Notes under the pieces: model-generated | Told to the model about the DNA's origin: nothing | The model's input: only the letters and a program-made list of their open reading frames with translations | The model's database searches: none | Program-made: the position numbers and the translations under genes | Sequence record: MK509462 | Source: Shigella phage MK-13 | Direction: 5' to 3' (one strand) | Length of the DNA: 64,000 bases | Shown here: positions 10,763 through 44,458 of the stretch, piece by piece | How the letters are laid out: each line of letters begins with the position of its first letter | Position numbering within the stretch: the first letter of the stretch is position 1

Positions 10763-10810
10763 AAAAAGGGGATAGAGCAATAATACCCTATCCCCTTTTA
10801 TTGAAGAACG
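10763..10810 (-). terminator. Terminator-like hairpin with conserved 5' flank (minus-strand reading CGTTCTTCAATAAAAGGGGATAG...CTATCCCCTTTTT)
   Basis: 8-bp stem GGGGATAG/CTATCCCC followed by a T-run on the minus strand; related copies at 13671-13720 and 18088-18120. Confidence 0.5.
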
Positions 10811-10811
10811 A

Positions 10812-11243
10812 TTAGTCTTCAGATTCTACAACCCCACCGCGCAAATCCTGAACAGGCTTTCCGTCAGGTGCCATAATATAGATGGTGTTGATAGTCTCAA
10901 ACCAAGACAGCTGGTCGATCCCTTCAGTATACGGCGTTACTGGAACAGAAGTCTTGACCTCTTTGCCTTTCGTGTTCGGATGTTCAACCACATCCAAGAA
11001 CGCACAGTTCCCGCTCGGGTGGATCACACCATCAGTAAACAGCACGATCTTCTTGCGAGGGTTGCTGGCCTCACCCAGGCACACCACCAGATGATGAATC
11101 ATCTCGGGGCGGGTAATCAACGTGTCGTCACGGATGATACCTTGCTTGATAGCAGAGATCACCACTTCGTCTAACAGCGCCTGCTGCTGGTCCAGCGTCA
11201 GTGATTCAGTAAGTTTCAGAGCCATTATTCGTACCCCAAACAT
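10812..11243 (-). CDS. hypothetical protein (143 aa)
   Basis: Minus-strand ORF. Confidence 0.55.
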   Translation of the reverse strand: MFGVRIMALKLTESLTLDQQQALLDEVVISAIKQGIIRDDTLITRPEMIHHLVVCLGEASNPRKKIVLFTDGVIHPSGNCAFLDVVEHPNTKGKEVKTSVPVTPYTEGIDQLSWFETINTIYIMAPDGKPVQDLRGGVVESED

Positions 11244-11357
11244 TTGTTTAAGAAAGTCAGAACGTCATCCATGTTCTTGACTTCAATTTCAATGCCAAGC
11301 TCCTTTGCCAGCGTGTTGGCGTGCTTGACGATTTCTTTATCACGTTCTGACATGATA

Positions 11358-11933
11358 TCAGCCTTTGAAGTTGATCGGTTTCTGAACCCCAGCGTCGAAC
11401 GCGGCCTGGGTACGGGTATCGCTCACCACCTGACAGGTCTTGTCAAGATCGATGCGCGGGTAGCCAAACATGCCAGCGATCAACGAACCAGGGAACTGAG
11501 CCAGCTTGGTTTCGTACATTGCGCAGATATCCAGCTTCTTGGTCTGACTGATGCGGAATTCATCACGCCCAGAACTGATCACCACCTGGATCTCTTTGTA
11601 CAGGCTGGAATCGAACTGAATGTTCTGCTCCTGGATCCACTGCATAACAGCCTTGGAACCATCAGCGCCATAACGCCCTTCGAACGTGCCTTTGATCACT
11701 TCCTTCAGGCCGTCTTTGTACATGTCAGGAATCTGCGCCGTCTCCTGAACTTTGAGCGTGTAGTTGCTCAGGTAGTTCTCTGAGTCTTTGTTGAACTTCT
11801 TGACCTGTTGCTCAGTGCGGTTGAAGTCGTTGAAGTAGCTGATGACTGTGCCGATGCCGACAATCACCATGCCCAGCAAAGCCAAACCAACGATCCAACC
11901 TGTTGCAATACCCTTAGATTGAGACATTCTCAC
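11358..11933 (-). CDS. membrane-anchored protein (191 aa, N-terminal TM)
   Basis: Hydrophobic N-terminal segment GIATGWIVGLALLGMVIVGIGTVI. Confidence 0.55.
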   Translation of the reverse strand: MRMSQSKGIATGWIVGLALLGMVIVGIGTVISYFNDFNRTEQQVKKFNKDSENYLSNYTLKVQETAQIPDMYKDGLKEVIKGTFEGRYGADGSKAVMQWIQEQNIQFDSSLYKEIQVVISSGRDEFRISQTKKLDICAMYETKLAQFPGSLIAGMFGYPRIDLDKTCQVVSDTRTQAAFDAGVQKPINFKG

Positions 11934-11945
11934 TTCCTCTTTTGA

Positions 11946-13061
11946 TTAAAAATTAAACGGATAACGACGACGGCCACCATTGTACTCCATTCGCTGCAAT
12001 ATGAAAATTGCGGTGAACGGCAAGCAGCCCAGCAGAACAACAACCACAACTTCCCAGGTCTTGAGTTCCCGCCACTTCAGGTACTCCATTTCCTTCATCT
12101 CAACGCGGTTGTAGCCTTTGGTGATGTTGGCGACAACGTCTGTCATGACGCCGATACCCATATCATGTCCAATCAGGTCCATACCGTTGCGGGAGTGAAG
12201 TTCACGGTTGTGCATACCATCAGCGAACGAAGTGCTCTTACCCCAATTGATCTTCAGGTCTTTGCTGATGTCGGTGACGACAATGACGTCGTTCTTTTTA
12301 CCGCCATCCCATGCATAGACCAAGCCCTGGAAATATTCAACTGGCTGACCGGATGTCACAACCCAGACGATGTTCACCTGCTTGGCCGCGCCCAGCTTCT
12401 TCAGAACATCATTCAGATAGTCGTTCCAGTATGTGGTTGGCAAAGCCAGGCCGGACACGTTCAGGACACGAGTGACACGATAGTAGTCATAGACCTCAGG
12501 GTACTTGGGAATCTTGTCTTTGAAGCGCTCAGCAAACTGCTGGTCTGAGCGGGAGAACAGAGAGTCCTTGTTGCCCAGCACATAGTTCATGTAGGAGTGC
12601 TCACGGGCGGCTGGCTCACCAATCTGAACCTGCGCCCAGCGCGGCGGCTGGCCAAGACCACGGCGATCAATGCGGTCAATCGTCAGATTACCAACAGTCG
12701 TCAGCACATCCCAGTCCACGTCATACGAATGCTCATAGCAGGTGCTGCAATGGCGAGTACGGGTACAGGACTTGCTGCTACCGGAACCGGAGCATGATGT
12801 GGTGTAGTAGCAGTTGCACTGATACGAGTGCTCGCAGCTCACCTTATTGCGCTCCTTGCCAGTGACGTATCCGTTCAGGATCTCAACGTCCCCTGAACTG
12901 CCGAGGGAGAACGCAGCATAAGCCCCGACCTGAATCAGACAGGACAGCACCACCACAATCGCCGTCGCAATCAGAGTCTCTTTCGGCTCATGGGTCTTGC
13001 GGTGGTAGACCACAAACAGGATGGCCAGTATCAATGGCACACCAAACAGGAGATAGATCAT
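11946..13061 (-). CDS. cysteine-rich membrane protein (371 aa)
   Basis: Two N-terminal TM helices, a Cys/Ser-rich block (CEHSYQCNCYYTTSCSGSGSSKSCTRTRHCSTCYEH) and a C-terminal TM. Confidence 0.6.
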   Translation of the reverse strand: MIYLLFGVPLILAILFVVYHRKTHEPKETLIATAIVVVLSCLIQVGAYAAFSLGSSGDVEILNGYVTGKERNKVSCEHSYQCNCYYTTSCSGSGSSKSCTRTRHCSTCYEHSYDVDWDVLTTVGNLTIDRIDRRGLGQPPRWAQVQIGEPAAREHSYMNYVLGNKDSLFSRSDQQFAERFKDKIPKYPEVYDYYRVTRVLNVSGLALPTTYWNDYLNDVLKKLGAAKQVNIVWVVTSGQPVEYFQGLVYAWDGGKKNDVIVVTDISKDLKINWGKSTSFADGMHNRELHSRNGMDLIGHDMGIGVMTDVVANITKGYNRVEMKEMEYLKWRELKTWEVVVVVLLGCLPFTAIFILQRMEYNGGRRRYPFNF

Positions 13062-13444
13062 AACTCACCATCCACGAGTTGTGCCTTGGTCATCCCAAGG
13101 AGTTGATCTTTGTACTCAGGCTTGGCACCGTTCTTTAACAACAGATCCCAACGCTCTTCATGGTACTGTGGGTCCAGCGCTTCATCAAATGTGATGTGAT
13201 GGCGGAACATAACAGTTGCCACTGAATGGACGCAGTGAGCGATTGCGCGCTTCAGAGTGCGTTCTGGCGTAATGTGCTTTTTATATTCAATGCCCATCAG
13301 ATCCAATTCTTTGAAAAGATAGGAGAATGACAGGGCGCCTTGTGAATGCAGCACGACGATAGTGGCTTTCTTAGGGTGGAGTGTACCATCCGTTTCTTTC
13401 ATGAACAGATCGTACAGGTACTGTTTGTATTCGGACTGTGTCAT
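13058..13444 (-). CDS. hypothetical protein (128 aa)
   Basis: Minus-strand ORF, start/stop overlaps with neighbours. Confidence 0.55.
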   Translation of the reverse strand: MTQSEYKQYLYDLFMKETDGTLHPKKATIVVLHSQGALSFSYLFKELDLMGIEYKKHITPERTLKRAIAHCVHSVATVMFRHHITFDEALDPQYHEERWDLLLKNGAKPEYKDQLLGMTKAQLVDGEL

Positions 13445-13653
13445 TTAGATTCACCCATGACGATAACGGAAGCGCCATTACGGAAGCGCCCATATTCAGG
13501 CGGAAGACCTTCGCGAACTTTCTGTGCGAACGCTTCAGAAACCACCAGACGGCCAACCAGAGGGTCTTTTTGTTTCGGAGTGGACTCAAAGTAATCACCA
13601 AAAGTCGCTTCCATATCCAGTAGGGACATATCTTCAATTCGTTTCATTGCCAT
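13441..13653 (-). CDS. hypothetical protein (70 aa)
   Basis: Minus-strand ORF. Confidence 0.45.
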   Translation of the reverse strand: MAMKRIEDMSLLDMEATFGDYFESTPKQKDPLVGRLVVSEAFAQKVREGLPPEYGRFRNGASVIVMGESK

Positions 13654-13670
13654 GATGTATTTCCTTGCAA

Positions 13671-13720
13671 AAAGAAAGGGGAACGGGCTAATATTAACCC
13701 ATTCCCCTTTATTGAAGAAC
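13671..13720 (-). terminator. Terminator-like hairpin with conserved 5' flank (GTTCTTCAATAAAGGGGAA...TTCCCC + T-run on minus strand)
   Basis: Stem GGGGAA(c)GGG / CCC(a)TTCCCC at 13678-13707; minus-strand T-run after it; shares flank with the 10763-10810 element. Confidence 0.5.
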
Positions 13721-13735
13721 GCAATCGCAATCAGA

Positions 13736-13903
13736 TTACTTTTTCTTCAGCTCGTCCAGTTTGGCTTCGATTTGTTCCAGGATGTCTTTACCCTTCTGAA
13801 CAATCACTTCACCGTCTTGCGCGTGTTTGCGGAATACCAGAGCGCCAGCTACGAAGCCGACAACCACACCAGGAAGCGCATAAACCAGCAGATCTTGTAA
13901 CAT
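13736..13903 (-). CDS. small membrane protein (55 aa; not in the ORF track)
   Basis: ATG at 13903 preceded by GAGGA SD; translation MLQDLLVYALPGVVVGFVAGALVFRKHAQDGEVIVQKGKDILEQIEAKLDELKKK. Confidence 0.45.
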   Translation of the reverse strand: MLQDLLVYALPGVVVGFVAGALVFRKHAQDGEVIVQKGKDILEQIEAKLDELKKK

Positions 13904-13906
13904 GAT

Positions 13907-13935
13907 AATATCCTCACTTTATAGGTGAGGATATT
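13907..13935 (-). promoter_or_regulatory. 11-bp-stem hairpin enclosing the SD of the 13736-13903 gene
   Basis: AATATCCTCAC ...7 nt... GTGAGGATATT; sits between the stop of the 410-aa gene (13940) and the next ATG (13903); no U-run. Confidence 0.4.
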
Positions 13936-13939
13936 TATA

Positions 13940-15172
13940 TCAGCGTTTCAAGAGTGCCATGAGGTTGACGCTGCTGGGCTTCGACTTGTCTTCAGGCTTG
14001 ACAGCTGTCTTCGGGCGTTCACACACCTCAGATGGTTCCCAGCGCGTACCCTTTTGCAGGTGCCAAATGTGCAGAGGGATGCCAGTATCAAAGAACACAG
14101 GCATCTTCCACTTCTGGACGCCTGGAACGTGCCCTGCAGGAGCCTTTTCGCATAACAGGGTATCTGGTAACCAGAGTGAACGGGCTTCCCAGAGCGCTGC
14201 ACAGGAGTACTCCGGCCAGATGCGTTCCATGTAGTCGATCTCATCCCAGGTACGCTCGGCATCCCACCCAATGTAACGGGTATTCTTCTCACGGAAGAAC
14301 TTCTTCAGCCAGCATGCACCGGAGGTTTCAAAGTTCAGGCGATTGATGAACGTCAGATGCCCGAACTCAGCCACGCATTCCTTGAACGCCTGTTCAAGGT
14401 CGGCCTCAAGGATGTCACACTCTTCATCAGTGATAGGACAACCATTGATCTTTTTCTTCCCATGCTTGGTCACCCAATCATCACGGTTGGACAAGAACGC
14501 CGCGCCGTTGCGGTTGGACTCGCTGCCATCACGATCACGCAGCATGAAGCCAGGGACGTCGATATCCCACATATTGCCAAACACCATGTTCAGAGCTTCC
14601 AGGAAGTTCCAGGCGCTCAGGCGGCCGAAGTATTTCCAGGACATCGCCGTTTCCCACAACTTAGTGAACTGGTCGCCCTGGGGCTTGGTCTCCAACATCG
14701 GTCGGAATGCTTCCATCTGGGAGCGCCCTGCCAGCCAGTCAATGTAGGACTGAACACATGGGATCATCTTCGACTTGCGATAGCGGCAGTCGGTATCGAA
14801 GCGCATGCGCTCAAAGTTCAGGTTGTACCAATCAGAGAAGCGCTGCATCTCTTCTTTGGACTGAGGGGGTACAGGGAACTCACTGTAGATTGTCCATGGA
14901 CCGATGGCGTTGTAACAGCAGCCCCAAAGGAATGCCATCCAGATTTTGCGCTCGATCTTCTCAAGCTGCGTGATGCCTTCTGTGACTTCGATCGCATAAT
15001 CCATCAGACGCATCTGCTGGTTGTGCTCTTCGGTGTAGGACAGCGCCTCCACCCAAGCCTTGAGCAGGTACATGCGATTCTCAGGCTTGCGATAATCAAC
15101 AGCCAGGTCAATCGGGTACTTCCATTCAGCCGGGGGTGTATAGCCCGTCGGCATTTTAGATAGATGCGTCAT
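13940..15172 (-). CDS. hypothetical protein (410 aa); possible DNA-modification enzyme, unverified
   Basis: Long ORF with ATG start at 15172; no motif recognised; placed among nucleotide-metabolism genes. Confidence 0.6.
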   Translation of the reverse strand: MTHLSKMPTGYTPPAEWKYPIDLAVDYRKPENRMYLLKAWVEALSYTEEHNQQMRLMDYAIEVTEGITQLEKIERKIWMAFLWGCCYNAIGPWTIYSEFPVPPQSKEEMQRFSDWYNLNFERMRFDTDCRYRKSKMIPCVQSYIDWLAGRSQMEAFRPMLETKPQGDQFTKLWETAMSWKYFGRLSAWNFLEALNMVFGNMWDIDVPGFMLRDRDGSESNRNGAAFLSNRDDWVTKHGKKKINGCPITDEECDILEADLEQAFKECVAEFGHLTFINRLNFETSGACWLKKFFREKNTRYIGWDAERTWDEIDYMERIWPEYSCAALWEARSLWLPDTLLCEKAPAGHVPGVQKWKMPVFFDTGIPLHIWHLQKGTRWEPSEVCERPKTAVKPEDKSKPSSVNLMALLKR

Positions 15173-15512
15173 CTTTCGCTTCCTCTTCAGGAGCCAGCTG
15201 AATATCTTCCGGTTTCACGAACCCCATCGGGCGTTCCCACATATCGATAAAGCGACGGTCAGCGGTCACGAACCACAGACGGGCTGCAGTGTGGGTCTTA
15301 CCCGAGATGAACATCTGGGCATTCGTCTGGGTGCGGAACGGAGCCGCTTGCAGCCACTGACCGAAGTCTTTGGACGACGGGTTGGCGTTCAGCTGGAACT
15401 GAGGGATGACACAGTTCTTTTCAGGGATCAGGCGCACAGCCGTAATGTGCTGGGCGTTTCCGGTGTAGTCAATTGCAACGGCCACAGCATTGCGAGGGAT
15501 TTCGATTTTCAT
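15156..15512 (-). CDS. hypothetical protein (about 118 aa)
   Basis: ATG at 15512 overlaps the upstream stop as ATGA (translational coupling); ORF-track start 15647 would overlap the upstream gene. Confidence 0.45.
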   Translation of the reverse strand: MKIEIPRNAVAVAIDYTGNAQHITAVRLIPEKNCVIPQFQLNANPSSKDFGQWLQAAPFRTQTNAQMFISGKTHTAARLWFVTADRRFIDMWERPMGFVKPEDIQLAPEEEAKDDASI

Positions 15513-15712
15513 TTTGGTTCCTTGAATATTTTGTAACCAGCAGCGCCGATAGACATCACCGCGCCAATACAGTACATCACAGTCACGTTCAACTTCTCTG
15601 AGGTTGTTAAGTCCAGAGGGGTGAAATGATAGGCCAGGGCAGCGCACATTGAAACGGCTGCCATAACCAGACCGACGAATAACAGATAATTAGACAACCG
15701 TTTCATGATCAC
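15509..15712 (-). CDS. small membrane protein (67 aa)
   Basis: Two hydrophobic segments; stop overlaps the next start. Confidence 0.5.
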   Translation of the reverse strand: MIMKRLSNYLLFVGLVMAAVSMCAALAYHFTPLDLTTSEKLNVTVMYCIGAVMSIGAAGYKIFKEPK

Positions 15713-16626: not shown

Positions 16627-16931
16627 TATACAGCATCCTCAATACGCCAGCTCACGCCGCCCATCCATGGTGCCCAGAATACAGCAACCTGTGGGCGGCC
16701 ATTCTCTTCAAACTTCACTTTATACTGGTCGTCGAAGTTATAGAAGATTTCATCCGCTTCAGAGCGCTGACCGATCTCCACCAGTACGTCATGAAGAGCC
16801 TTGGCTGCGCCGATAGGAGTCGGAGTCTCCTGCTGGCGAATGAAGTTGTTGACATGGATAATCACGCCATCCATATCGCTATCACCGGAACGCTTGTCTG
16901 GGGTTTCCCCAAACTTGGATTGTTCTTGCAC
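16626..16931 (-). CDS. hypothetical protein (101 aa)
   Basis: Minus-strand ORF between the kinase and the HAD hydrolase. Confidence 0.5.
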   Translation of the reverse strand: MQEQSKFGETPDKRSGDSDMDGVIIHVNNFIRQQETPTPIGAAKALHDVLVEIGQRSEADEIFYNFDDQYKVKFEENGRPQVAVFWAPWMGGVSWRIEDAV

Positions 16932-16940
16932 GATGTCCTC

Positions 16941-17720: not shown

Positions 17721-18067
17721 TTGTCTTCCTCAACTTTGTCGTAGCCCGTAGCAACGCACTGTTCTTCGGTACAATCCGCATACAGAACAACAGACGCCTG
17801 CTTCACGTAGGTGGTGCAGTGGTAGGTTTCGTCTTCCTGGATGGAATCGTCATAGTTGCAGACAGTTTGGAGCGGACCTGGGGTGGTGTTATCCAGCGCT
17901 GCATGTGCCTTGATGGTGTCTTCCATCTTGGCCACGGCTTGTTCGTTGGTGAACGTCGGCGCGTCGAGGTCAGGGGTTGACACGACGTCCGCCAGGGTAG
18001 AGCATGCGGTGGTAGAGAAAGCCAGAGCGCACACCAGAAGAATCTTATTGAGTTTCATTTCAATCAC
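17717..18067 (-). CDS. putative lipoprotein / secreted protein (116 aa)
   Basis: Signal-peptide-like N-terminus KLNKILLVCALAFSTTAC with a lipobox-like cysteine. Confidence 0.5.
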   Translation of the reverse strand: MIEMKLNKILLVCALAFSTTACSTLADVVSTPDLDAPTFTNEQAVAKMEDTIKAHAALDNTTPGPLQTVCNYDDSIQEDETYHCTTYVKQASVVLYADCTEEQCVATGYDKVEEDK

Positions 18068-18087
18068 CTGTTTGTCAAAGGGTTAAC

Positions 18088-18120
18088 AGGGGGAATTATA
18101 TCCCCCTTTGGTTTATTGAA
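18088..18120 (-). promoter_or_regulatory. Intergenic hairpin (AGGGGGA-attata-TCCCCCT) with TTCAATAAA flank
   Basis: 7-bp GC stem between the DNA polymerase stop (18121) and the next start (18067). Confidence 0.4.
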
Positions 18121-21120: not shown

Positions 21121-21199
21121 GTAATTCTCCAGGTTATCCGTGCCGTTAGCACGTGAGCATATTTAACCATAGAGCCATTCATTGACCAAGGAGTTTATT

Positions 21200-21772: not shown

Positions 21773-21778
21773 GTTCAA

Positions 21779-21804
21779 GGGGAGGAAACTCCCCTTTCTT
21801 TTGG
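21779..21804 (+). terminator. rho-independent terminator
   Basis: GGGGAG-gaaa-CTCCCC followed by TTTCTTTTGG. Confidence 0.6.
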
Positions 21805-22027: not shown

Positions 22028-22122
22028 AATATTTATTGAATAAAGTTTACTTCTTCAATAACTGGCGTATACTTCTAATTGTAGTACGAGCAAACAACAA
22101 TCTGAAGAGAAGGAAATACATC

Positions 22123-23827: not shown

Positions 23828-23832
23828 AAGAA

Positions 23833-23857
23833 AGGGGCTTAATGCCCCTTTTGTTAT
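23833..23857. terminator. bidirectional rho-independent terminator
   Basis: GGGGC-ttaat-GCCCC with T-runs on both strands, between convergent genes (stops at 23827 and 23854). Confidence 0.6.
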
Positions 23858-25825: not shown

Positions 25826-26524
25826 TTACTTCTTGAACAGACGAAGGAACTTCATCATGTTTTCCATGAAAGTCGGCTTCTTGACCTTTTGTTTTACCGG
25901 AGCACCCTGATCATTCAGAACACGACTGGCCGGAGGGGTAGGAGCCACAGGTGGCTCTACATATTTTCGATTCAGGCTTTCTTCAATCTCGCCCAATGAG
26001 GCGTCCTTCGTAGCCGGAACGATATTCACTGTATGACGCGGGGATTCAGCGACGTATTTGTTGTCAACCACAGTGACAGGCTTGACGAGATTCTTTTCGT
26101 ACTCGCGAGCCATGGCCTGGTACTTCCGATTCTCTGCGTCGAAGTCCATAGAAACGGCTTTACGACAACGGCGGGTTGCGCTTTCATCACCATAGAAATA
26201 GAAGAAGTTTTTGACCAGCCAATGGATTGCCTGTTCACGCGTATAGAATACTTTGAACGGCTGACCGTCGCCCTCTTCGGCGGCGGTAATACTAGAGTAA
26301 CCCATAAGGACAACCTGCCCCTTCACGCCGAGATCAAAGGGTGTGCATTCGCCAGGCTGGTTGAGATCACGCGGAGCGAGCTGGGAGCCGCGATGGATAT
26401 AATTCGGCGACAAGAACTCGTTCAGAGTACGCTTGTTGCCTTTGTATTGGAACATACGGATTATAGTTGGGGTGGACTGCAATTCCCATTCTTCAGTATT
26501 TTCCCAGATAGAAACATTACGCAT
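25826..26524 (-). CDS. hypothetical protein (232 aa)
   Basis: Minus-strand ORF. Confidence 0.6.
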   Translation of the reverse strand: MRNVSIWENTEEWELQSTPTIIRMFQYKGNKRTLNEFLSPNYIHRGSQLAPRDLNQPGECTPFDLGVKGQVVLMGYSSITAAEEGDGQPFKVFYTREQAIHWLVKNFFYFYGDESATRRCRKAVSMDFDAENRKYQAMAREYEKNLVKPVTVVDNKYVAESPRHTVNIVPATKDASLGEIEESLNRKYVEPPVAPTPPASRVLNDQGAPVKQKVKKPTFMENMMKFLRLFKK

Positions 26525-26594
26525 TGGTGTATCCTCAAATCAATGATAGGGGTTTAACGGTTAAATTTTAAACCCCTATTGGTTGTTGAACAAA

Positions 26595-28511: not shown

Positions 28512-28736
28512 TTATCCGTGCTTGTTCGCTTCAATCGCCCTTAATTGGGCATCAGCGTCAGCTTTGGTGTCATGTGTACCAAGAACCTTCGTCTTGGTGT
28601 GGTCAAGGACAACCCACTTGTCACCTCGCTTTTCAACAAACTCGACAATCTCTTTGTTGTCGGTAGCGAGGCCATCCCACTCAGCAATAAAATCACCGAA
28701 CGTTTTCATCATACTCACCAATTGTTTATTGAACAA
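28512..28736 (-). CDS. hypothetical protein (74 aa)
   Basis: Clean minus-strand ORF ending 2 nt before tRNA-Asn. Confidence 0.5.
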   Translation of the reverse strand: MFNKQLVSMMKTFGDFIAEWDGLATDNKEIVEFVEKRGDKWVVLDHTKTKVLGTHDTKADADAQLRAIEANKHG

Positions 28737-28938
28737 CTGGTTTATTTAGGTGCTCCCAAGGCGGTATTTGAATCCCGCGATCCCATCACACCTGCCGTAG
28801 ACCGGAGCTTGCTGGCAGTCCAACAATGTTTGGCGGGGTTTGAGGATTTTCACCTCACCTGCTGGGTTTGGCCGCCCAGCCGTTCTCTATGAGGATTCGC
28901 TGTCCGGACAACTATCCCTTAAACTATCGCCCCTCAAT

Positions 28939-29018: not shown

Positions 29019-30538
29019 AAATTATTGTGTGACCAACCAAGGACTGTCAACCCTTTATCCCGTTTGTGCATGATCAGTTCATGCAGGCCTGTTTGTGCGC
29101 CTCACAGCATGCGCTTCTGTTGGTCATTGGCTTGCACCGTAGCCTCGCAACAGGCGTTTATTTTTCCAGGGCTTTCCACTTGCAAGTCTTAACCATACAG
29201 GGATACGGGCTTGCAAGATCGGGTTGGTCACAACTCTGATGGCTCTCGCCTTTCCGCTCATTTACCTGTCATCCACAACCGATATACATTATGGAATCTT
29301 GAGAGCCATCAGAGTTGCAGCCATGCTACAACCCGCACCTGGGAGAGGACAAGGTGATCGACCCCAGATACTTGCCTGCTTTCGCCAGGCCAAACGGTTT
29401 AGCGTCGGGTGCCTCCCGATGCCATTATCATGGCGAATAATGGCGTTGACTTATCCTCAGGTGGTTCTTGCCACTCAACCCTTGCGCTTAGCAGGATTCA
29501 CTAAACAACCCGCACTTCAGTGTCTTCGTCACACTTCAGCACTTGTCCTCTAACGTTCAGACCAAACGAGGCTGGCCGATAGCAAACTTGTTCTCTGGTA
29601 TTTTGTGACCCGCCAGAACGGTATGGGTTGATAGCCCGAACTCAGTTTGTATCGTAGAGTGATCACACTTGTCAGGATGATCACTATTTTGCGAACTCGA
29701 GAATACTGCACCTGTCTCGGGTTTCCCCTTAGTACGGTCACTCATTGTTCGAAGCAGTCAGGGAGCTACCCTTGATGACCGCGCTTATCTTGAGCTGTTC
29801 CTGGTGCCCACCAGTGTCCGGAATGTATAGGCATCGCAGCTTTACAAGGCAATGGTCTATTTCACCCATCGCTCTCCCAAGTTCGCAAAGTAGAGTTCTC
29901 TGAACTTCAATGACCCCTCATCTTGTACTATCGCCGCCGGGAACGTTCACCATGTGAATCAACCCTTGGGTTAAGTTCAACGTCCAGAGGACTCTACTTT
30001 GCGTTGTGGGGGCTGACCCCCACACGGCTACTTCTTTAACAGGGATTGCCAGCCCTGGGGATTCCACTGTTTAAGGCTTCATCCCATAACGCCTTAGGCG
30101 TGTTCTCAAATTATTGAGCTTGCTTAACTGCAAACTGATGCGCTGTGAGACACATCTTTGAGGGCACTCAGTGTGCAACAGGCTCCGATATTTCATAGGG
30201 CATTACTGCCTCGGATTTGAGTTGCCTTTCTCCTGAAACTCCATGCAGTCTCGCGTCTGACGCGGAATGCCCTCAAAGATGTGGAGCCGCTTTAGGGAGT
30301 CGAACCCAAGTGATTGGCCAGCGCTGACCTCACACCCCACCTGATATGTTCACCGGAACTTGCCTACTCAGGAGCTTATCCCCTTTTGACAATCAGGTAT
30401 AGCGGCATTGTAAATCTGTTTGGGCGGAGGCCTGTAACCAGCAGGCATCTCCTAGCGAACTTCTGAACACCAGGCTCGGGTGCGCCTGTCGCTGTGGTGA
30501 GTTCGACTTAACTCCTGAGCGGTTATTCCCAGTCGTCG

Positions 30539-30628
30539 ACACCCCCCAAACAGATTTTAGTCGGCGGGAGCTTATTAATCACACCCCCCAAACAGATTTT
30601 AGTCGGCGGGAGCTTATTAATCACACCC
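30539..30628. repeat. 42-bp tandem direct repeat, 2 copies plus a partial third
   Basis: acaccccccaaacagattttagtcggcgggagcttattaatc at 30539-30580 and 30581-30622, then acaccc; GGCGGGAG/CTCCCGCC inverted repeat at 30605-30612/30628-30635. Confidence 0.85.
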
Positions 30629-31357
30629 TCCCGCCTATTGTAGTGCGCCGAATTTTGTTATGAGGAGTCGGAAGACCTCACTGACTTATAGGCTATTACG
30701 CCGCCATCAGAACTACATCATCGTTTGCATTTATTTTTGTGGTCTGTTTCTTAAAACCCGCAAAGTCACGCACAACGAAAACGAAAACCTGTTTGAGCAC
30801 AAGACGCCATGTCCTGGGTTCACATCGAAGTGTTTGTCTAATGCCCAAACAGCTTTTCGTTCAATGGGTTAACTATACTCTGCAACCCGTTATTGACAAA
30901 ACTTTAAATCTGCCGGAACTTACGCATCCGGCCTCGCCTGTTGGTGCTCCTTCGAATCCGGGAAGATCAGCAGGAACTATGAATCAAGTTAATTCAACCA
31001 ACAGGAACCTTTGTGTTGCCCTTTGACGCAACATTATGAACCCTCTGTGAAGATCCATAATGTTGTCGGCGTGATGGAACCTGGCAGATCCGTCCTCCCC
31101 TATATGTTGGTGTCGACTTGCCAACGGGGTGCTCTCAAGCATCTGAGCTAATCACGCTACAACAGGGAGTTTCGTTCTCCGACGGTCAGTGCGTCCACTA
31201 ACACCATGCAAGGTGGATGTCACGCCTCTATTCACGCATGCCCCTGAGACTGGGATTAGTGAGGTCGGCTTTAGATGCCTAACTCAATGCGCTGTTCGCC
31301 TCACGTTTAATACTTTACCACAGCCCAGCTAATTTGAAAAGTCCTCTCCTCTTTGAG

Positions 31358-31504
31358 TTACACTGCCCACAGCAGTGCGGACGAACCTTCACTCAAAACC
31401 GGATGCACCGAAGTGGGCGACTGTTTACCGGACTGATCGGGTAGACCCAGGAGAGTAAAGGTAATCCCGATCAGGAGGATGAGGAGTAACATCATGTAAA
31501 ACAT
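31358..31504 (-). CDS. small hydrophobic protein (48 aa; not in the ORF track)
   Basis: Minus-strand ATG preceded by a strong SD GAAGGGAGGGAA; translation MFYMMLLLILLIGITFTLLGLPDQSGKQ... Confidence 0.4.
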   Translation of the reverse strand: MFYMMLLLILLIGITFTLLGLPDQSGKQSPTSVHPVLSEGSSALLWAV

Positions 31505-31561
31505 AGTGTTCCCTCCCTTCCATGCAACTAACTTTACTGCAATTCTTTATTGAATAAAGCG

Positions 31562-32131
31562 TTATTTTACCACTTTTAACTTCACATCACGCTCGAGCAG
31601 ATACACATATTCACGGGCGGCTGCGAGCGACATATAATGGGTGGATGGGGTGCTGTGTTTGTTCAGCGTCTCTTTTAATTCAACTCGCTCAGCCCACCCA
31701 TTGATGGAGGTGCCGTAGAAGCCGATGATAGCAGCGAAATAAATGCGTTGAGTTTCCGGCTCCAGGATGTAGTTCACGGTGAAGCAAACTTCAGAGCGAA
31801 TGCCAGAAGGTTTGATACCAATACGAAAATATGGCATCTCATTGCTAACACACAAATGGCGAAAACGATCACGACGGGCTTGTGTTGACTCCGTAAGTTC
31901 TTTACGCAGATGTATATCGTCGATGTTAAAAGAGAATGTGTTGTTGCTCTTTAGATCTGATTTAGCCAGGTCGATAGCAGAAGGAAGGACACGGCGGAAA
32001 TTGACTTCTTTCTTTGTCAAGCGTTTTGTCTCAGAAGTGATCCACACGAAATCGATATCTTGTACTTTCTTTCCTTCATATTTTTCCAACAAGGGAATGA
32101 TGTGTTTTAATACGGCAGTGTTGATGTGCAT
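31562..32131 (-). CDS. hypothetical protein (189 aa)
   Basis: Minus-strand ORF; palindrome CTTTATTGAATAAAG immediately downstream. Confidence 0.6.
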   Translation of the reverse strand: MHINTAVLKHIIPLLEKYEGKKVQDIDFVWITSETKRLTKKEVNFRRVLPSAIDLAKSDLKSNNTFSFNIDDIHLRKELTESTQARRDRFRHLCVSNEMPYFRIGIKPSGIRSEVCFTVNYILEPETQRIYFAAIIGFYGTSINGWAERVELKETLNKHSTPSTHYMSLAAAREYVYLLERDVKLKVVK

Positions 32132-32430
32132 GAGAGGTTCCTTAATATAGGGTTGATTGACCGGACTATTATATTTGGAAAGGTGTTATTGAATTAAAGG
32201 CCAACAAAATAGGAGTGCGGTTTATTAATAGGCAAAAACTACTTTTCTACAACACTCAGAGACTGTATCTTACTGTGGTGCCCTTTGAGTTGTGAGTGAT
32301 AACGAACAACGAAAAGCAGCCTCCATGGCTGTGGAATGGGACTGCCTGTCAAGGCGGTGTTACGAGCGTAGCGAGTAGGTTAATACTAATCGAGTAATAT
32401 AACGCGCGAGGAAGATTCAATCCCATCCCG

Positions 32431-32438
32431 CTAAATAT
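32431..32438 (+). promoter_or_regulatory. late-promoter-like motif CTAAATAT
   Basis: Variant of the T4 late promoter TATAAATA, about 40 nt upstream of the gp6-like start. Confidence 0.3.
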
Positions 32439-32477
32439 CTTCAACACCATATTCAAGTTCAGGTGATGGAGATAAAC

Positions 32478-36324: not shown

Positions 36325-36357
36325 CCCTAGATGAAACGAACACATTTAGGGGTATTT
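36319..36357 (+). promoter_or_regulatory. 11-bp-stem hairpin immediately upstream of the tailspike start
   Basis: AAATACCCCTA ...17 nt... TAGGGGTATTT ending 3 nt before the ATG at 36361. Confidence 0.45.
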
Positions 36358-36360
36358 GAA

Positions 36361-39255: not shown

Positions 39256-39295
39256 TCCGATTCTGTCTAGAGATGTCTAGCAACTTCTATCGATA

Positions 39296-39313
39296 AAGCC
39301 CCTTCAGGGGCTT
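39296..39313 (+). promoter_or_regulatory. GC hairpin GCCCC-ttca-GGGGC
   Basis: Between tailspike genes; near-identical to the 44306-44319 hairpin. Confidence 0.4.
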
Positions 39314-39336
39314 CGTGAGAACAACAGGAGATTCAC

Positions 39337-41439
39337 ATGAATCCGCAATTCAATCAGCCGAAAGGTTCAACGGCCAAAGAAATCAACAAAAACCCGCGTG
39401 AATTATGGCGTCGGACTTTGTCGGAATTGGGTCTTAATTTGGTCGAAGGTAGTTTTGAAGACGGTGCTACTGTGGCGACTGCAACTGACGTCGTGTGGCA
39501 TATCAATGGCGCCCAGTGTTACACCTGGGGTGGGTCTTTACCCAAGACTGTAGACAAAAACTCAACACCGCAATCAACTGGTGGGATATCCGGAGAAGCT
39601 TGGAAGAAATACGATGAAACTTCTCAGGTTACGACACCAGGATACTATGGCGGAACTTGTTTCCCCACGGAAAATAATCTCTCCTTGGCCGTCGGGGATA
39701 TTATCCCGTCAGGAGTAATGTTCGTCAGAATTGATGGTAATCTGATGATGATGAGTTCTTCTCTGACGGAACCCGTGACTGTCACCAGTTTTGATCAGAC
39801 TGTGATCAATGGCTTGCATGAGTTGTATCCAGTATCATTCTTTAACGAAGTGATCACGGGATGGAAGATTGCCCAGAATGACGCACAGCTTACGCGTTTA
39901 CTCCCAAAGGCAGGGAATATTTACATTGGTTATTCTCCAGTGAAAGTTGAAGGAATCTTCATTATTCAGGGAGATATCCGACTCAAGCCATTGCTGCCAA
40001 AAGTAACCGTTGATTCACGTCAGTTCTGGTTGAGATCGCCGCGCGCCTGGAACGAAACAAACCAGGAATATGACTACACCGCGTACGATATTCGTATTGT
40101 CGGTAACTTCCTGTTTGACTTCTATAGGCAAGATGCTTCCTTTGACCCAGGCGTTGGACTAGCTATGCAGTCCGCTGGAACTCTGGAGCTTTCCGGGTGT
40201 GAGTTACAAGGTGCGTGGAGAAGCAACGTAACCATGGATTATGGGCGCTGGTCTATTGCAGACAACTTGTATTCACATGATTGTGGCAGGGGGCAGATTC
40301 AAAATCCAGATGGTAGCAACCGCAATGGTATGGCTATTATTGTTGGTAATGCGACAGAAGCACATATCCATCATATCCGCACCAGAACCACTTGGGCATC
40401 CTCTGTCTTTGTTGATTCTTACCGCCCTGGACGAACGCTTAACGTGATGATCCATGACGTTAGTATTAACGGTTCTGGTGGTAACGGCCTGCGCCTTCAA
40501 TCTGACGATCTTGTTACCGGTGTTGGCGGCGGGCAGGGTACTGCAATTACTCGTGTAAACATCAGCGGCGTAACAATTAAAAACTGTGAATCGCATGGCA
40601 TCCGCGCAAACTTCACCAACGGAAGCGTTACGGGCGTATACATTGAGTCATGTAACGCGGGTATTGCCATTGAGGGTTCTAGTGATGTCACGTATGACAA
40701 CATCACCATCAGGAATTGCTCACAGCCAATCCTCTGTCGATATTATCCGGTAGTCTGCACACGCCTGCGATTTAGTAATATCTTAATATCAGGCCACACA
40801 GATTGGGCTGTGTTCTTTTTGCGTAAGGATGGCTCCTCTCACACGGTAAATCTAGGTGATATTGAATTCGACGGGTTGACAATCCACTGCACACAACCTG
40901 GTTCTAAAGCTGTTATGATTAACTGCGGGTCGAACGCAACAGCTACTTCCGACATCACTATGAAGAACGTGCGTATTGTTGGCGCATTTCCTGATACAGA
41001 CGGAACAGCACTCTGTCAGATTCATAATGCACGACATATTGAAGTAGATAACTGGAACATCAGAGGTGTTAACGGGCTTCCTAGTTCTTATTTGTATGCG
41101 CAAGCATCTCAGAGCTTGAACGTGCATCGCCTGGTTGGCGTTCAACCGTTTGGTACTGTTGATCGTCCTATTGAGTGCGTTGGCGTGGCTGGTCACGTAA
41201 ACATTGTGAATTGTTCTGTTCCTGTAACCACGAACGGAATATTATATACTTCAACTCCTGCATCCCGTTACGAAGAAGGGAACCAGTTTTACAATAGCGC
41301 TCAACCACAACAATTCCCGTTCACCAACGCTGGGCAGTTGCGTGGTGGTGATGTGAACACGTTAACAACCACGCAACTGGCAAACATAGTGGCTACGCTG
41401 ATTAACGATATTAGCCTGGGTAAATTCGTAATCAGATAA
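39337..41439 (+). CDS. tailspike protein, 700 aa
   Basis: N-terminus MNPQFNQPKGS...YTWGGSLPK shared with the 44459 gene; beta-helix-like repeats. Confidence 0.75.
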   Translation: MNPQFNQPKGSTAKEINKNPRELWRRTLSELGLNLVEGSFEDGATVATATDVVWHINGAQCYTWGGSLPKTVDKNSTPQSTGGISGEAWKKYDETSQVTTPGYYGGTCFPTENNLSLAVGDIIPSGVMFVRIDGNLMMMSSSLTEPVTVTSFDQTVINGLHELYPVSFFNEVITGWKIAQNDAQLTRLLPKAGNIYIGYSPVKVEGIFIIQGDIRLKPLLPKVTVDSRQFWLRSPRAWNETNQEYDYTAYDIRIVGNFLFDFYRQDASFDPGVGLAMQSAGTLELSGCELQGAWRSNVTMDYGRWSIADNLYSHDCGRGQIQNPDGSNRNGMAIIVGNATEAHIHHIRTRTTWASSVFVDSYRPGRTLNVMIHDVSINGSGGNGLRLQSDDLVTGVGGGQGTAITRVNISGVTIKNCESHGIRANFTNGSVTGVYIESCNAGIAIEGSSDVTYDNITIRNCSQPILCRYYPVVCTRLRFSNILISGHTDWAVFFLRKDGSSHTVNLGDIEFDGLTIHCTQPGSKAVMINCGSNATATSDITMKNVRIVGAFPDTDGTALCQIHNARHIEVDNWNIRGVNGLPSSYLYAQASQSLNVHRLVGVQPFGTVDRPIECVGVAGHVNIVNCSVPVTTNGILYTSTPASRYEEGNQFYNSAQPQQFPFTNAGQLRGGDVNTLTTTQLANIVATLINDISLGKFVIR

Positions 41440-41473
41440 ATAAGGGTCGCAGGATTAACCCCTTATCCATTCA

Positions 41474-41481
41474 CTAAATAC
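41474..41481 (+). promoter_or_regulatory. late-promoter-like motif CTAAATAC
   Basis: Overlaps the 5' arm of the 41478-41510 hairpin. Confidence 0.35.
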
Positions 41482-41510
41482 CCCATATTGGCAAATCCTC
41501 TATGGGGTAT
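41478..41510 (+). promoter_or_regulatory. 10-bp-stem hairpin sequestering the start region of the next tailspike gene
   Basis: ATACCCCATA ...13 nt... TATGGGGTAT; the 3' arm contains the ATG at 41502 and the SD-like region for the ATG at 41517. Confidence 0.45.
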
Positions 41511-41516
41511 CTTCAA

Positions 41517-44297
41517 ATGTCTAGAAACGTCGAGAGCATCTTTGGAGCGGTTGTAACAGCCCCGCACCAGATTCCATACACTTACACCGCAACGGGTGGA
41601 GAGACGTTTATCTCCCTCCCGTTCTACCCTGTTACAGGCTTCATCACCATCAATGGTGGGGTTCAGGTTCCTGTCGACAACTATGAAATTGATGGTAACA
41701 CTGTGAACCTCGGTCGAGCGCTAGAGGCTGATGATGTAGTGTACTGTCTGTTCGACAAGATCCTGTCCCCAGAAGATTATGAAAACGGGATCCGAATCTA
41801 CAAGTTCCAGGCCGTTGGCAACGAGACCTCATTCACCCCAGACTTCACGACGTATGGTGTGCAATCCCTGTATATCGATGGGAAGTTCCAGGTTCCTGGG
41901 GTTGACTACAATTACAACAGCGCAACTGGTGTGGTGTCATTCCTGAATGGATCTCCGACTGCTGGTGTTTGGGTTGTGGCTGAGATGTCTGTGAAGCAAA
42001 ACTATCTGGCTCTGTCTTCGGAGGGTGGTGCCAGTTTGGTAGGCACGACTTCTGGCAGCACTGTGCAGGAAGAGTTGAACGATGTTGCTGGGCAGCTAGC
42101 CAATTTAGAAGATGATCTTTCTACATTGAAAATTGCAGTGGCCAGTGTTTCCTTTACTCAATTTGGGGCAGTTGGTGACGGCGTGGCTAACGACACGCAC
42201 GCCGTAAAACTGGCGTTCGATTATGCTCTTGCTAATAACGTTGCAGTCGAGCAGCATAGCGGTGTTTTCTTGCTGGATGGCACTGAATACATTGATATCA
42301 GAAACCTGCAAACCGACCTCACCGGATGCGTCCTTAAGCCATCCGCATCATGGACTGGTCAGATTGTGATTTCTCAGACTGGCGCGCCTGTCACTTACGG
42401 TTCTAGTTCTGATGTCGTGACAAAACTTAATACTAACAGTCCAGCCAGCCGCGCCGTTGGAAGTACGATAATGAGCGGGATCGCAACTGATAGCACTTTG
42501 GATGGATGCTACGTCAAAATATCGACTTCTCAGCCAATGTTCGTATTCAGGGACGCTACTTACACAAGGAAAGACCTGAACAGAGTTTATAACCGAGGCA
42601 ACATAGAGAACCCGTTACGCTATGGCCTAGGAACGAATGTTACAGAAGTTATTGCGCTGAAAATTCGCAAAGACGTGCAGACTGTTAAAGGGCTTACTAT
42701 TGATGAAAGCCTGTCGAAAAACTATCGCATTGTGTACATCAACAACGCATCACGCGTTAAGCTTGTCAACACGTCTTTCATCAATGCCCCGATAACGCAG
42801 GATTTCAGTGATACCAGAATTGATATTGCAGGCTCATATGACGTGGAAATTGACGGCCTGTTCACACCGTCTGTGGTCGATTCGTTCAACGGCACTGGTG
42901 ACATCTACTCGTATTCTCTGGGTATAAGCGAGAGCATGAATGTCAGAGTGAAGCATATGACTGCTAACGGTGAAGGATGGGGCGCGACCGGTAGCAACAA
43001 CAGCGCAAACATTACTTTCGAAGAATGCGACTTGAGCAGGATTGACTTTCATATGCCTTTCCAGGGATATTTGCGTGTCAATAAATGCAATGTTGGACGA
43101 TACGGTGTAGTTGTAACTGGCATTGGTGACCTAATCATTGATGATGTCATCTTTAATGGTTCAACTGACCAGCTGGGTTCAATTATCGCCACTCGTCCTG
43201 ACTGCGGCGGGTTCTTCGATGGTGACCTGTATATGTCAAATGTGACTATCGCTGGTCGCCGTTCCGGTCAGATTTCGGCACTAATCCAGGGACCTGCTGA
43301 TGCTGGGCAGGGACCAGCATCAGGATCGCCCATCAACAGCACTCTTTTCAATAAAGTTGTTATTCGCGACCTAAAACTGAAAGACGGATTCTTTGAGCAG
43401 ACTTTTGCCACGCTACTGTATTCCCAGCGTGATTCACAACTACTGTTCCCAAAAGTGGTCGATATTGACGGGCTAAGTTTTGGGGCGCTGCCAAAATCAT
43501 CTGGGGTTGGCCTGAATATCGACTTCTCGCGATTTAAAGCGCTGTTCTCTGATATGACAAACTCAGAGCATCCAGTAACAGGAAGAAAAACGACCGATAT
43601 TATTTTACGTAATATTCAAACACCATATCTGTCGGTAACAGCGGCATCAGCGCGTCATAACCCCTCTATTGTCGCAAGTAACGTGCGTCATGTGATAAGT
43701 GGCGAAGTAGATACGCTGCTGGAGATTAACCAGCGTGGCAGATATTTGTTAGATTCATGCTCACTTGAGCAGTTGAAGCTTTTTTATGGTTCGAACCCCA
43801 ATGGCCTGGTAAGTCTCACAATGCGTGGCGGCAGACTTCAGCAGCCTGTTGCAGCAACCATGCCTATTTCTGGTGAAACCACGCACAGCGTCACCCTAGA
43901 TGGAACGGATATTGTGTGCCAGTTCAACGGGCAAGACTCAACATACCCGATCACCAAAGCAATCATTGCCAGGGCGCTTGTTAAAGACTGTAGATATTGG
44001 GATGTTTCTGGCGCAAGACTAAACAATTTGAGTTTCGTTAAGCCTGAAAGCACTAGCACCACTATAACTGTGACTATGAAGGTTGGTCAAAAATTAGCAG
44101 TGTCTACCGGATACACAGCAGGCAATACTTACACAAGAAGCAACTTTACCGCGTTGTGGGAGTCAGGTGCCAAGCAAGTAGCAAGCATTGGCGCGGCAGG
44201 CAACGTGATTGTCACATATACGGTATCAGGTGATTCGGTTTCACAGATAGTAATGACAAGTCCAGCAAGTAATGAGATCCGCGACGTGTCAATTTAA
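41517..44297 (+). CDS. tailspike protein, about 926 aa
   Basis: Start ambiguous (41502 or 41517); beta-helix-like repeats; N-terminal anchor-like region. Confidence 0.7.
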   Translation: MSRNVESIFGAVVTAPHQIPYTYTATGGETFISLPFYPVTGFITINGGVQVPVDNYEIDGNTVNLGRALEADDVVYCLFDKILSPEDYENGIRIYKFQAVGNETSFTPDFTTYGVQSLYIDGKFQVPGVDYNYNSATGVVSFLNGSPTAGVWVVAEMSVKQNYLALSSEGGASLVGTTSGSTVQEELNDVAGQLANLEDDLSTLKIAVASVSFTQFGAVGDGVANDTHAVKLAFDYALANNVAVEQHSGVFLLDGTEYIDIRNLQTDLTGCVLKPSASWTGQIVISQTGAPVTYGSSSDVVTKLNTNSPASRAVGSTIMSGIATDSTLDGCYVKISTSQPMFVFRDATYTRKDLNRVYNRGNIENPLRYGLGTNVTEVIALKIRKDVQTVKGLTIDESLSKNYRIVYINNASRVKLVNTSFINAPITQDFSDTRIDIAGSYDVEIDGLFTPSVVDSFNGTGDIYSYSLGISESMNVRVKHMTANGEGWGATGSNNSANITFEECDLSRIDFHMPFQGYLRVNKCNVGRYGVVVTGIGDLIIDDVIFNGSTDQLGSIIATRPDCGGFFDGDLYMSNVTIAGRRSGQISALIQGPADAGQGPASGSPINSTLFNKVVIRDLKLKDGFFEQTFATLLYSQRDSQLLFPKVVDIDGLSFGALPKSSGVGLNIDFSRFKALFSDMTNSEHPVTGRKTTDIILRNIQTPYLSVTAASARHNPSIVASNVRHVISGEVDTLLEINQRGRYLLDSCSLEQLKLFYGSNPNGLVSLTMRGGRLQQPVAATMPISGETTHSVTLDGTDIVCQFNGQDSTYPITKAIIARALVKDCRYWDVSGARLNNLSFVKPESTSTTITVTMKVGQKLAVSTGYTAGNTYTRSNFTALWESGAKQVASIGAAGNVIVTYTVSGDSVSQIVMTSPASNEIRDVSI

Positions 44298-44303
44298 AGT
44301 GCT

Positions 44304-44324
44304 TAAGCCCCTTCGGGGGCTTTC
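44304..44324 (+). terminator. rho-independent terminator-like hairpin
   Basis: GCCCC-ttcg-GGGGC followed by TTTCC. Confidence 0.5.
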
Positions 44325-44458
44325 CAATGAGGAACTACACCACCAGTCAACACTAGACATTCTCGAAATTAGACTTCTTGGCGTTTAAACCCAAAATGCA
44401 GAAGAAACGAGTATTATTTGAATTCAATAAACATGACTAAAACAACAGGAGATTCTTT

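Follow-up and report, generated by a model that had tools for sequence, protein, structure and literature searches.

The 64,000-nucleotide stretch of Shigella phage MK-13 considered here (sequence record MK509462; its full length is referred to as the window) shares 95% identity across 12 kb with Shigella phage Ag3, the closest relative, which belongs to the genus Agtrevirus of the family Ackermannviridae (the ViI-like phages). From ~600 to 32131 the genes of the window run mostly leftward and include rIIA/B, DNA polymerase, nucleotide-metabolism, and thymidine-modification genes as well as four tRNAs, with a short rightward block at ~21.2–23.8 kb breaking up the series; from 32463 on they point rightward and are those for baseplate, tailspike, neck, terminase, tail, and head proteins. 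Among the leftward genes lie repeated copies of a 9-mer, TTCAATAAA (the box), set at a nearly fixed distance from a −10-like hexamer, and this bipartite element is the subject of the present analysis. For comparison, we used 45 loci from ~22 Ackermannviridae genomes, including those of Salmonella phage Marshall, E. coli phage KWBSE43-6, Erwinia phage Bue1, Serratia phage phiMAM1, and LIMEstone1.

The exact 9-mer occurs eight times in the window, against an expectation of 0.48, and none of 100 shuffled sequences reached eight. Six copies are on the minus strand (10797, 13708, 18112, 22032, 28725, and 31546) and two on the plus strand (43347 and 44423); all lie outside open reading frames (ORFs) except that at 43347, which is inside ORF 41502–44297. 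Three 50-kb stretches of Ag3 hold 1, 4, and 5 exact copies, where ~0.35 would be expected in each. The initial annotation of this DNA, which had described hairpin elements flanked by the motif and had proposed a genome-wide count, is thus borne out on frequency, the motif being enriched throughout Ag3 as well. Every copy that it cited exists, including GTTCTTCAATAAA(A)GGGGA followed by a hairpin and a T-run after the stops at 10812 and 13736 and the related hairpin copy at 18088–18120, and it missed the copies at 28725 and 43347. As to the two palindromes TTTATTGAATAAAG that it listed, the one at 31546–31559 was placed correctly, and the one given as 22034–22047 had been set two positions too far right, its place being 22032–22045.

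At the three copies with a hairpin that had been noticed (sites C, B, and A below), a −10-like hexamer starts exactly 11 bp past the 9-mer, in the loop: TATTAT, TAATAT, and TATAAT, respectively. The element can accordingly be written as TTCAATAA(A/C), a gap of 11 bp (range 9–12), and a sigma70-type −10 hexamer (TATAAT, TATTAT, TATGAT). With up to one mismatch, box-N11-TAnnnT is found five times in the window (0.22 expected) and 2, 2, and 6 times in the three Ag3 loci (10 in total, against 0.11–0.19 each and ~0.43 overall). When gaps of 9–12 bp are allowed, the whole Ag3 genome yields 20 matches, compared to 0–3 in shuffled sequences, and ~16 of the 20 are intergenic and co-oriented with the next gene. 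The gap profile of the forward box peaks sharply at 11 (12 matches over a background of 1–2), and the reverse-complement box has no gap-11 peak in the same profile. Fifteen non-orthologous Ag3 sites give the consensus (g)TT-n-TTCAATAAa, N11, TATnATt. If the −10 is set at −12 to −7, the box spans about −32 to −24, so that it overlaps the 3' part of the −35 position and runs 5–6 bp into the spacer.

A two-block weight matrix built on this pattern returned nine hits of at least 18 bits in the window and none in 20 shuffles; eight of these are box/−10 sites, and the ninth is a plus-strand promoter of another type (22045–22073). The hit density of the matrix is 30 per 100 kb for Ackermannviridae loci (608 kb in total), with Marshall, KWBSE43-6, Bue1, and phiMAM1 among the carriers, whereas 668 kb of DNA from unrelated phages give 0.3 per 100 kb and no hit above 22 bits. 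The eight sites of the window all lie on the minus strand in the 9–32 kb non-structural block, with none in the structural block. They are listed here with their scores from the matrix, whose Ag3 training sites include orthologs of seven of them (all but D):

10797..10805, minus strand: site C box, TTCAATAAA, first base 10805, preceded by cgttc, 8 nt past the stop at 10812; 31.6 bits
10780..10785, minus strand: site C −10-like hexamer TATTAT, 11 bp past the box, at the apex of the hairpin; 30 nt upstream of the ATG at 10749
10764..10799, minus strand: site C hairpin, 16 pairs and then a U-run; −24.3 kcal/mol, z = −6.66 (RNA folding)
13708..13716, minus strand: site B box, TTCAATAAA, first base 13716, past the stop at 13736; 28.0 bits
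13691..13696, minus strand: site B −10-like hexamer TAATAT, at the apex of the hairpin; 37 nt upstream of the ATG at 13653
13675..13710, minus strand: site B hairpin, 16 pairs and a U-run; −25.8 kcal/mol, z = −4.49
18112..18120, minus strand: site A box, TTCAATAAA, first base 18120, overlapping the DNA polymerase stop codon (ggTTGAttcaataaa); 29.0 bits
18095..18100, minus strand: site A −10 TATAAT, which makes up the hairpin loop; 36 nt upstream of the ATG at 18058
18088..18107, minus strand: site A hairpin, 7 pairs, GGGGGAU/AUUCCCC in RNA; −14.1 kcal/mol, z = −2.07
26546..26590, minus strand: site D, box variant TTCAACAAC (26582–26590, first base 26590), N11, TAAAAT (26565–26570); ATG at 26524; 21.8 bits
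26546..26579, minus strand: site D hairpin, 12 pairs; −14.6 kcal/mol, z = −4.19
28708..28733, minus strand: site E, TTCAATAAA-N11-TATGAT, first base 28733, no terminator hairpin (z = −0.77); 29.8 bits
30872..30897, minus strand: site F, GTCAATAAC-N11-TATAGT, first base 30897, no ORF downstream; 22.7 bits
31531..31554, minus strand: site G, TTCAATAAA-N9-TAAAGT, first base 31554, no hairpin (z = −0.20); ATG at 31504; 26.2 bits
32168..32193, minus strand: site H, TTCAATAAC-N11-TATAAT, first base 32193, no hairpin; ATG at 32131; 27.0 bits

The hexamers of these sites thus comprise TATAAT, TATTAT, TATGAT, TAATAT, TATAGT, TAAAAT, and TAAAGT, and six of the eight end 26–40 nt before a start codon. 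Four sites (A–D) carry the hexamer at the apex of a terminator-type hairpin, and the other four have no hairpin. The box at sites A–D lay 4–20 nt past a stop codon in the placement test, and at site A it overlaps the stop codon itself. On the plus strand, site G reads as the palindrome TTTATTGAATAAAG at 31546–31559.

The box, the −10, and the distance between them are constant in Agtrevirus, Limestonevirus, Kuttervirus, the genera of Bue1 and phiMAM1, and KWBSE43-6; across these five identified genera and KWBSE43-6, the spacers, flanks, and hairpin stems have been replaced. The exact box is present in 19 distinct orthologous sequences of site C and is invariant in all eight distinct orthologous versions of site B. 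An ungapped alignment of site B gives a 16-pair consensus hairpin in which 8 of the 16 pairs are kept through changes on both sides, and its orthologs carry three or four unrelated stems (GGGGAATGGG..., GGGAATGGGC..., GGGGTGCAGGC..., and GGGGTTACAG...), every version of which keeps the exact box and a hexamer (TAATAT/TATTAT/TATATT/GATAAT/TATGAT) at the same offset. Site A appears in Bue1 as TTCAATAAC-N11-GATAAT with a different stem, and the orthologs of site D read TTGTTCAAT(GA)...TAAAAT. Among the sites without a hairpin, (T/G/A)TCAATAA-N12-TATAGT is kept at site F in all 10 sequences examined, and relatives of site G keep the box and TAAAGT with a variable spacer. Site H retains TTCAATAA-N12-TATAAT in 12 of 13 distinct orthologous sequences, LIMEstone1 being the exception; its spacer and flanks are unrelated between relatives, and positions −35 to −33 differ.

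Sites B and C resemble intrinsic terminators in having long GC-rich stems and clear U-runs directly past a co-oriented gene, and the authors of the Ag3 genome listed site B as terminator Torf248 (Ag3 paper). The two cassettes are paralogs with 78% identity over 64 nt. On one view, all copies would be ordinary intrinsic terminators, with the conserved flank a product of cassette duplication and the A-rich box the U-tract of the opposite strand, allowing termination in both directions; B and C are strong canonical terminators, AATAAA beside the stem is a T-rich tail when read on the plus strand, and the terminator scan calls site A on that strand. This explanation is nevertheless very unlikely to hold. 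It leaves the four sites without a hairpin unaccounted for, and at site H there is no gene upstream in the same orientation that a terminator could serve. What is constant is the spacing from the box to the hexamer in the loop, not to the stem, from which the box is separated by anything from 0 to 5 nt, and the exact 9-mer, beyond mere A-richness, persists where stems have been wholly replaced. The loops are long, AT-rich, and −10-like rather than the usual tetraloops, and the U-tracts of sites A and D are weak; because of its weak U-tract, site A would be more of an attenuator than a canonical terminator.

When Ag3 was scanned crudely for perfect-stem, terminator-like hairpins with TAnnnT in the loop, ten were found, five of which carry the box at the right spacing; the other five lie mostly within ORFs and have nothing box-like. 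Earlier annotators have also placed promoter signals in such hairpins. Site A corresponds to the sigma70 promoter Porf237 (TTGAttcaataaaccaaagggggaTATAAT) of the Ag3 authors, who likewise list Porf067 (TTcAatagatgaaggggcTGcTATAAT) on top of terminator Torf069, another box/hairpin site (Ag3 paper), and the GenBank record of LIMEstone1 has a "putative promoter" −10 signal annotated inside the terminator at the ortholog of site C. The suggestion in the initial annotation of a combined terminator/promoter instead of a generic terminator is supported by these comparisons, in which the pairing of box and hexamer outlasts complete replacement of the stem. It needs correcting as to the hairpin: judged by conservation, the constant unit is the box/−10 pair, and the hairpin, since four sites have none, is optional, a frequent but not required partner.

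The same annotation had offered RNA processing as an alternative, in favor of which we found nothing. The box might act at the RNA level as a site of processing (such as cleavage of the RNase E type within UUCAAUAAA, beside the stem-loop), as a stability element, or as an alternative pairing partner in the 3' untranslated region. At sites A–D it is indeed single-stranded, AU-rich, and directly 5' of a stable hairpin, and at site B, GUUCUUC could pair weakly with the 5' arm as an alternative. Such a role would explain neither the conserved hexamer at a fixed distance nor the hairpin-less sites, three of which (E, G, and H) show no significant RNA structure (z −0.8 to −0.2), nor site H, which sits in the divergent region without an upstream co-oriented transcript. 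Only tRNAs reach the gathering score in an Rfam scan of the window, and no family matches the box sites. We regard an RNA-level function as the most improbable of the explanations considered. At site E (28708–28740, minus strand), a small hairpin (CCAGUUGUU/AACAAUUGG) holds the box in its loop, and the 51-nt segment as a whole, at −8.7 kcal/mol, is not significant.

Several known promoter elements and binding sites were tried against the sites and rejected. Hexamers at 16–18 bp from the −10, where a canonical sigma70 −35 would be, are not conserved, the conserved part being the box: at 16–17 bp they read nnTTCA or nnnTTC, and positions −35 to −33 vary (taa, ata, ttc, ttg). Only site A (TTGATT, 18 bp, 4/6) and site F (TTGTCA, a 5/6 match with a 16-bp spacer) come near the canonical hexamer. 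Shifting the −10 by 3 bp to obtain a 17-bp spacing leaves sites A and E without a hexamer, and an extended −10 (TGn) is present only at Ag3 Porf067. A T4-type late promoter (gp55, TATAAATA) does not fit, as the box lacks TATAAATA (it has CAATAAA plus a variable base), has a separate −10, and has no site in the structural block. In a comparison by eye, no fit was seen either to the IHF (WATCAANNNNTTR) or to the Fis consensus sequence.

Taken as a whole, the evidence makes it probable that TTCAATAAA serves as the upstream recognition box in a class of early/middle promoters specific to the Ackermannviridae. From the bipartite motif with its fixed spacing and orientation, its placement, its conservation, and that of the hairpins, we infer promoter activity, start points, a timing class, and a protein that reads the box. 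The putative promoter unit consists of (TT-n-)TTCAATAA(A/C), 11 bp (range 9–12), and a sigma70-type −10 hexamer that would be read by the host RNA polymerase with sigma70. The reader of the box, in turn, would be sigma region 4, contacting it in a non-canonical register, or else a candidate phage factor; the nnTTCA found at a 16-bp spacer, and TTGTCA at site F, make a non-canonical sigma70 contact possible. The setting of site H fits such a role, because the intergenic region 32132–32462 is divergent, and leftward transcription must start there, so that a promoter must exist. The target of a promoter at site E is perhaps the tRNAs.

In short intergenic gaps, the promoter would be interleaved with the terminator of the upstream gene, with the box before the stem and the −10 in the loop. 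Incoming transcripts would contain the whole hairpin and the U-run and would stop. Transcripts starting ~7 nt past the −10 would begin within the 3' arm and, to judge from this anatomy, would lack the hairpin, escape termination, and run on into the next gene. One short element could thus end one transcript and start the next, with a logic like that of the promoter-early and promoter-middle stem-loop (PeSL/PmSL) cassettes of T4-like phages.

The 9-mer is also part of a second, separate type of promoter, exemplified in the window by one feature:

22032..22073, plus strand: separate promoter of the T4/PST early type, conserved in relatives

It consists of the palindrome TTTATTGAATAAA (22032–22044), a −35 (G)TTTACT (22045–22051), and a −10 TATACT (22068–22073), with TTCAATAAC in the spacer (22054–22062). 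The minus-strand 9-mer at 22032–22040 is the other strand of that palindrome, which is the AT-rich upstream region of this predicted TTTAC-N-TATACT promoter. Ag3 has ~10 promoters of this type (TTTACT-N16/17-TATAMT), of which eight have the 9-mer or its complement immediately upstream of the −35 and five have TTCTTCAATAA in the spacer. These promoters of the T4/PST early type (TTTACW-N17-TAYWAT with an AT-rich upstream region) in the window and in Ag3 resemble the box sites in their TTCTTCAATAA-like sequence, but differ in having a proper −35 and in carrying the 9-mer in the spacer or upstream in either orientation, and are a separate class. The sequence shared by both promoter types may reflect common descent of cassettes, the binding site of a regulator, or both.

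Because the TTTAC-type promoters share the 9-mer sequence, we kept one further explanation under consideration, namely, that the box is an operator for a phage DNA-binding protein (an early-shutoff repressor or an HU/TF1-like protein) and not a polymerase element, its closeness to a −10 reflecting regulation of promoters that other features define. Full palindromes TTTATT(G/C)AATAAA at 22032–22044, 31546–31558, and Ag3 ~74812–74824, the occurrence of the 9-mer upstream of the −35 (in both orientations) and within the spacer of the ~10 TTTAC-type promoters, and the presence in Ag3 of genes for two HU/histone-like proteins and an annotated transcriptional regulator all speak for it. Most copies, however, are solitary boxes that are not palindromic, with one orientation and a fixed distance to a −10, and the box sites have no other upstream promoter element that could be regulated. 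A purely operator-type function is consequently unlikely, and it would in any case be compatible with the promoter class proposed above, as one protein could activate at about −30 and repress elsewhere.

A more specific and tentative idea, which we consider possible without favoring it, is that the box is the target of a phage transcription factor that is unrelated to MotA and redirects the host RNA polymerase in ViI-like phages. Bound at about −30, this candidate factor would activate the box promoters of the nucleotide-metabolism genes, replication-neighborhood genes, and tRNAs, and the same factor, through the box in the spacer or upstream region, would shut off the TTTAC-type early promoters. 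The thymidine hypermodification of Ackermannviridae phage DNA might also play a part.

Some observations weigh against the promoter assignment or limit it. The 9-mer also stands in other registers in the TTTAC-type promoters (whether in the spacer or, in both orientations, ahead of the −35), so that one fixed role does not account for all copies. The 14 bp separating TTCAAT from the −10 are too few for a normal sigma70 −35, and with no known activator the strength of these promoters is uncertain. At site E, the −10 TATGAT overlaps the annotated ATG of a 65-amino-acid ORF upstream of tRNA-Asn, and site A in phiMAM1 has a spacing 2 bp longer, with the hairpin kept and TATACT in the loop. Owing to the orthologs among the training sites, the matrix scores of seven window sites are partly circular, although the shuffle and unrelated-phage controls are not. 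More generally, every argument for the box promoters is comparative or statistical.

Two exact copies in the rightward block stand apart from the class:

43347..43355, plus strand: exact 9-mer within ORF 41502–44297, no −10 partner, consistent with a chance copy
44423..44431, plus strand: exact 9-mer upstream of the tailspike gene, no −10 partner at 9–12 bp, not conserved in Ag3

With 0.48 chance copies expected per window, one or two strays are unremarkable. The second copy had been counted with the hairpin-associated ones in the initial annotation; it exists, but having no −10 partner and no counterpart in Ag3, where homology starts only ~20 nt before the tailspike ATG, it does not belong to the class.

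The closest known kind of element is that of the PeSL/PmSL cassettes of T4-like phages, which are composites of a promoter and a stem-loop (Arbiol et al. 2010, PMC2839356; Comeau et al. 2014, PMC4122927). In the commonest PeSL layouts, the stem-loop lies in the interval separating the −35 from the −10 or overlaps the −10, and a PmSL consists of a Mot box, a −10, and a stem-loop (PMC2839356; PMC4122927). The box elements are similarly short intergenic composites between a stop codon and the next ribosome-binding site or ATG, they join a putative promoter with a terminator-type stem-loop in the commonest PeSL layout (sites A–D), and they occur in many copies per genome, mainly among non-structural genes (~17 sites in Ag3 and 8 in the window); with PmSLs they further share a box at about −30 plus a −10. 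They differ in belonging to another family, in having an invariant TTCAATAA box 11 bp from the −10 instead of a −35 at 17 bp (TTGACA, TTTACW, TTGYVH), and in lacking a stem-loop at half of the sites, and they have neither the TGCTT Mot box of PmSLs nor a known activator. Recombination between cassettes, a hallmark of PeSLs, is here only hinted at by indels and gene swaps beside sites A and B. In Kuttervirus-type loci (L009, L010, L011, L015, L017–L019, L021, and L027), a ~205-bp insert with a small ORF (~6516–6722, relative to 13653–13662 in the window) begins exactly past the T-run of cassette B (...gcaagga), and in three loci (L012, L019, and L034) a different gene follows site A, the replacement beginning a few codons past the ATG. 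No second flanking cassette and no sign of a mini-circle was found at these indels and swaps, which are suggestive of cassette borders being indel hot spots, as described for PeSLs. A tandem arrangement of stem-loop and then promoter, also PeSL-like, is seen at 2490–2560 (minus strand), where a stem-loop (aaagaggctccggcctcttt) is followed at once by TTCATTTCC...TATAAT; it is the counterpart of Ag3 Porf009.

The middle promoters of T4 carry a 9-bp MotA box 12 ± 1 bp from a sigma70 −10 and are activated through sigma appropriation by MotA/AsiA (Hinton 2010, PMC2988021). The putative box promoters are alike in having a 9-bp asymmetric box near −30 in place of a −35, 11 bp from a near-consensus −10, and in serving nucleotide-metabolism, replication-neighborhood, and tRNA genes. 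The likeness to a MotA box raised in the initial annotation therefore extends to position, but not to sequence, TTCAATAAA being unrelated to (a/t)(a/t)(a/t)TGCTT(t/c)A, nor to the factor: with T4 MotA and AsiA as queries, tblastn against the Ag3 genome and the window gave a best E value of 0.05 (in the topoisomerase gene) and phmmer against the Ag3 ORFs gave E ≥ 0.4, that is, no homolog.

A structured RNA resembling transfer-messenger RNA (tmRNA) is found ~0–20 nt past the predicted start of site F, at 30695–30866 (minus strand; −57 kcal/mol, z = −3.98). It matches the Rfam family tmRNA_permuted (RF04321) with 30.5 bits, below the gathering score of 47, in the region of the resume codon and the tag. 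The tag frame, GCA AAC GAT GAT GTA GTT CTG ATG GCG GCG TAA TAG, encodes ANDDVVLMAA-stop-stop and is conserved, with relatives having ANDNAYLAVA, ANDNTFLAVA, or ANDNAYLMVA, each followed by a stop. ARAGORN reports no tmRNA, a tRNA-like domain was not found in this RNA, and the Ackermannviridae papers checked name tmRNA only when citing ARAGORN. From site F to tRNA-Ser (~29020–30890), ~1.9 kb contain no ORF longer than 63 amino acids on the transcribed strand. This stretch, which may hold further non-coding RNA genes, includes a sub-threshold match to the small RNA family STnc100 (RF02076) at 29397–29506 (minus strand; 33.4 bits, gathering score 47, E = 1.4e-4).

Other signals of the non-structural block are of different kinds. 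The gap of 62 bp upstream of the DNA polymerase gene (21121–21181) has no box site, so that this gene must use another signal. Hairpins at 21777–21796, after the first gene of the short rightward block, and at 23830–23852, its right-hand convergent end, score as terminators on both strands. At 9123–9150 (minus strand), TTGACA is followed by TACTAT at 15 bp (or TATACT at 13 bp), directly abutting and overlapping the start codon annotated for rIIA (TATACTATGAAAATG). Transcription would begin no earlier than the annotated ATG; the true start may be the second ATG, or the message may be leaderless.

According to the paper on phage CBA120 (2011), ViI-like phages are devoid of MotA, AsiA, Alt, and ModA, only about eight sigma70-consensus promoters can be found in them, and informatics failed to reveal their early and middle promoters, which divergent gene blocks must nevertheless possess (PMC3184105). 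The element described here, found across the family, would provide concrete candidates for these early/middle promoters, one of them at a point of divergence. Adriaenssens et al. 2012, who proposed the genus Viunalikevirus, reportedly mention conserved regulatory sequences of the phage group in their abstract. The shared box is not described in the literature we searched, which did not extend to that paper or to the phiMAM1 paper, so that a prior description is possible; a study of Ackermannviridae transcript ends was not found in it either.

The nested layout of sites A–D would extend PeSL-type promoter-terminator cassettes beyond T4-like phages proper. ViI-like phages are widely used in biocontrol and engineering (Salmonella, E. 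coli O157, Dickeya, and Klebsiella), for which a map of promoters and insulators would be of practical use. Should the box indeed be the target of a phage transcription factor unrelated to MotA, the T4 superfamily would have solved the early-to-middle switch a second time and independently.

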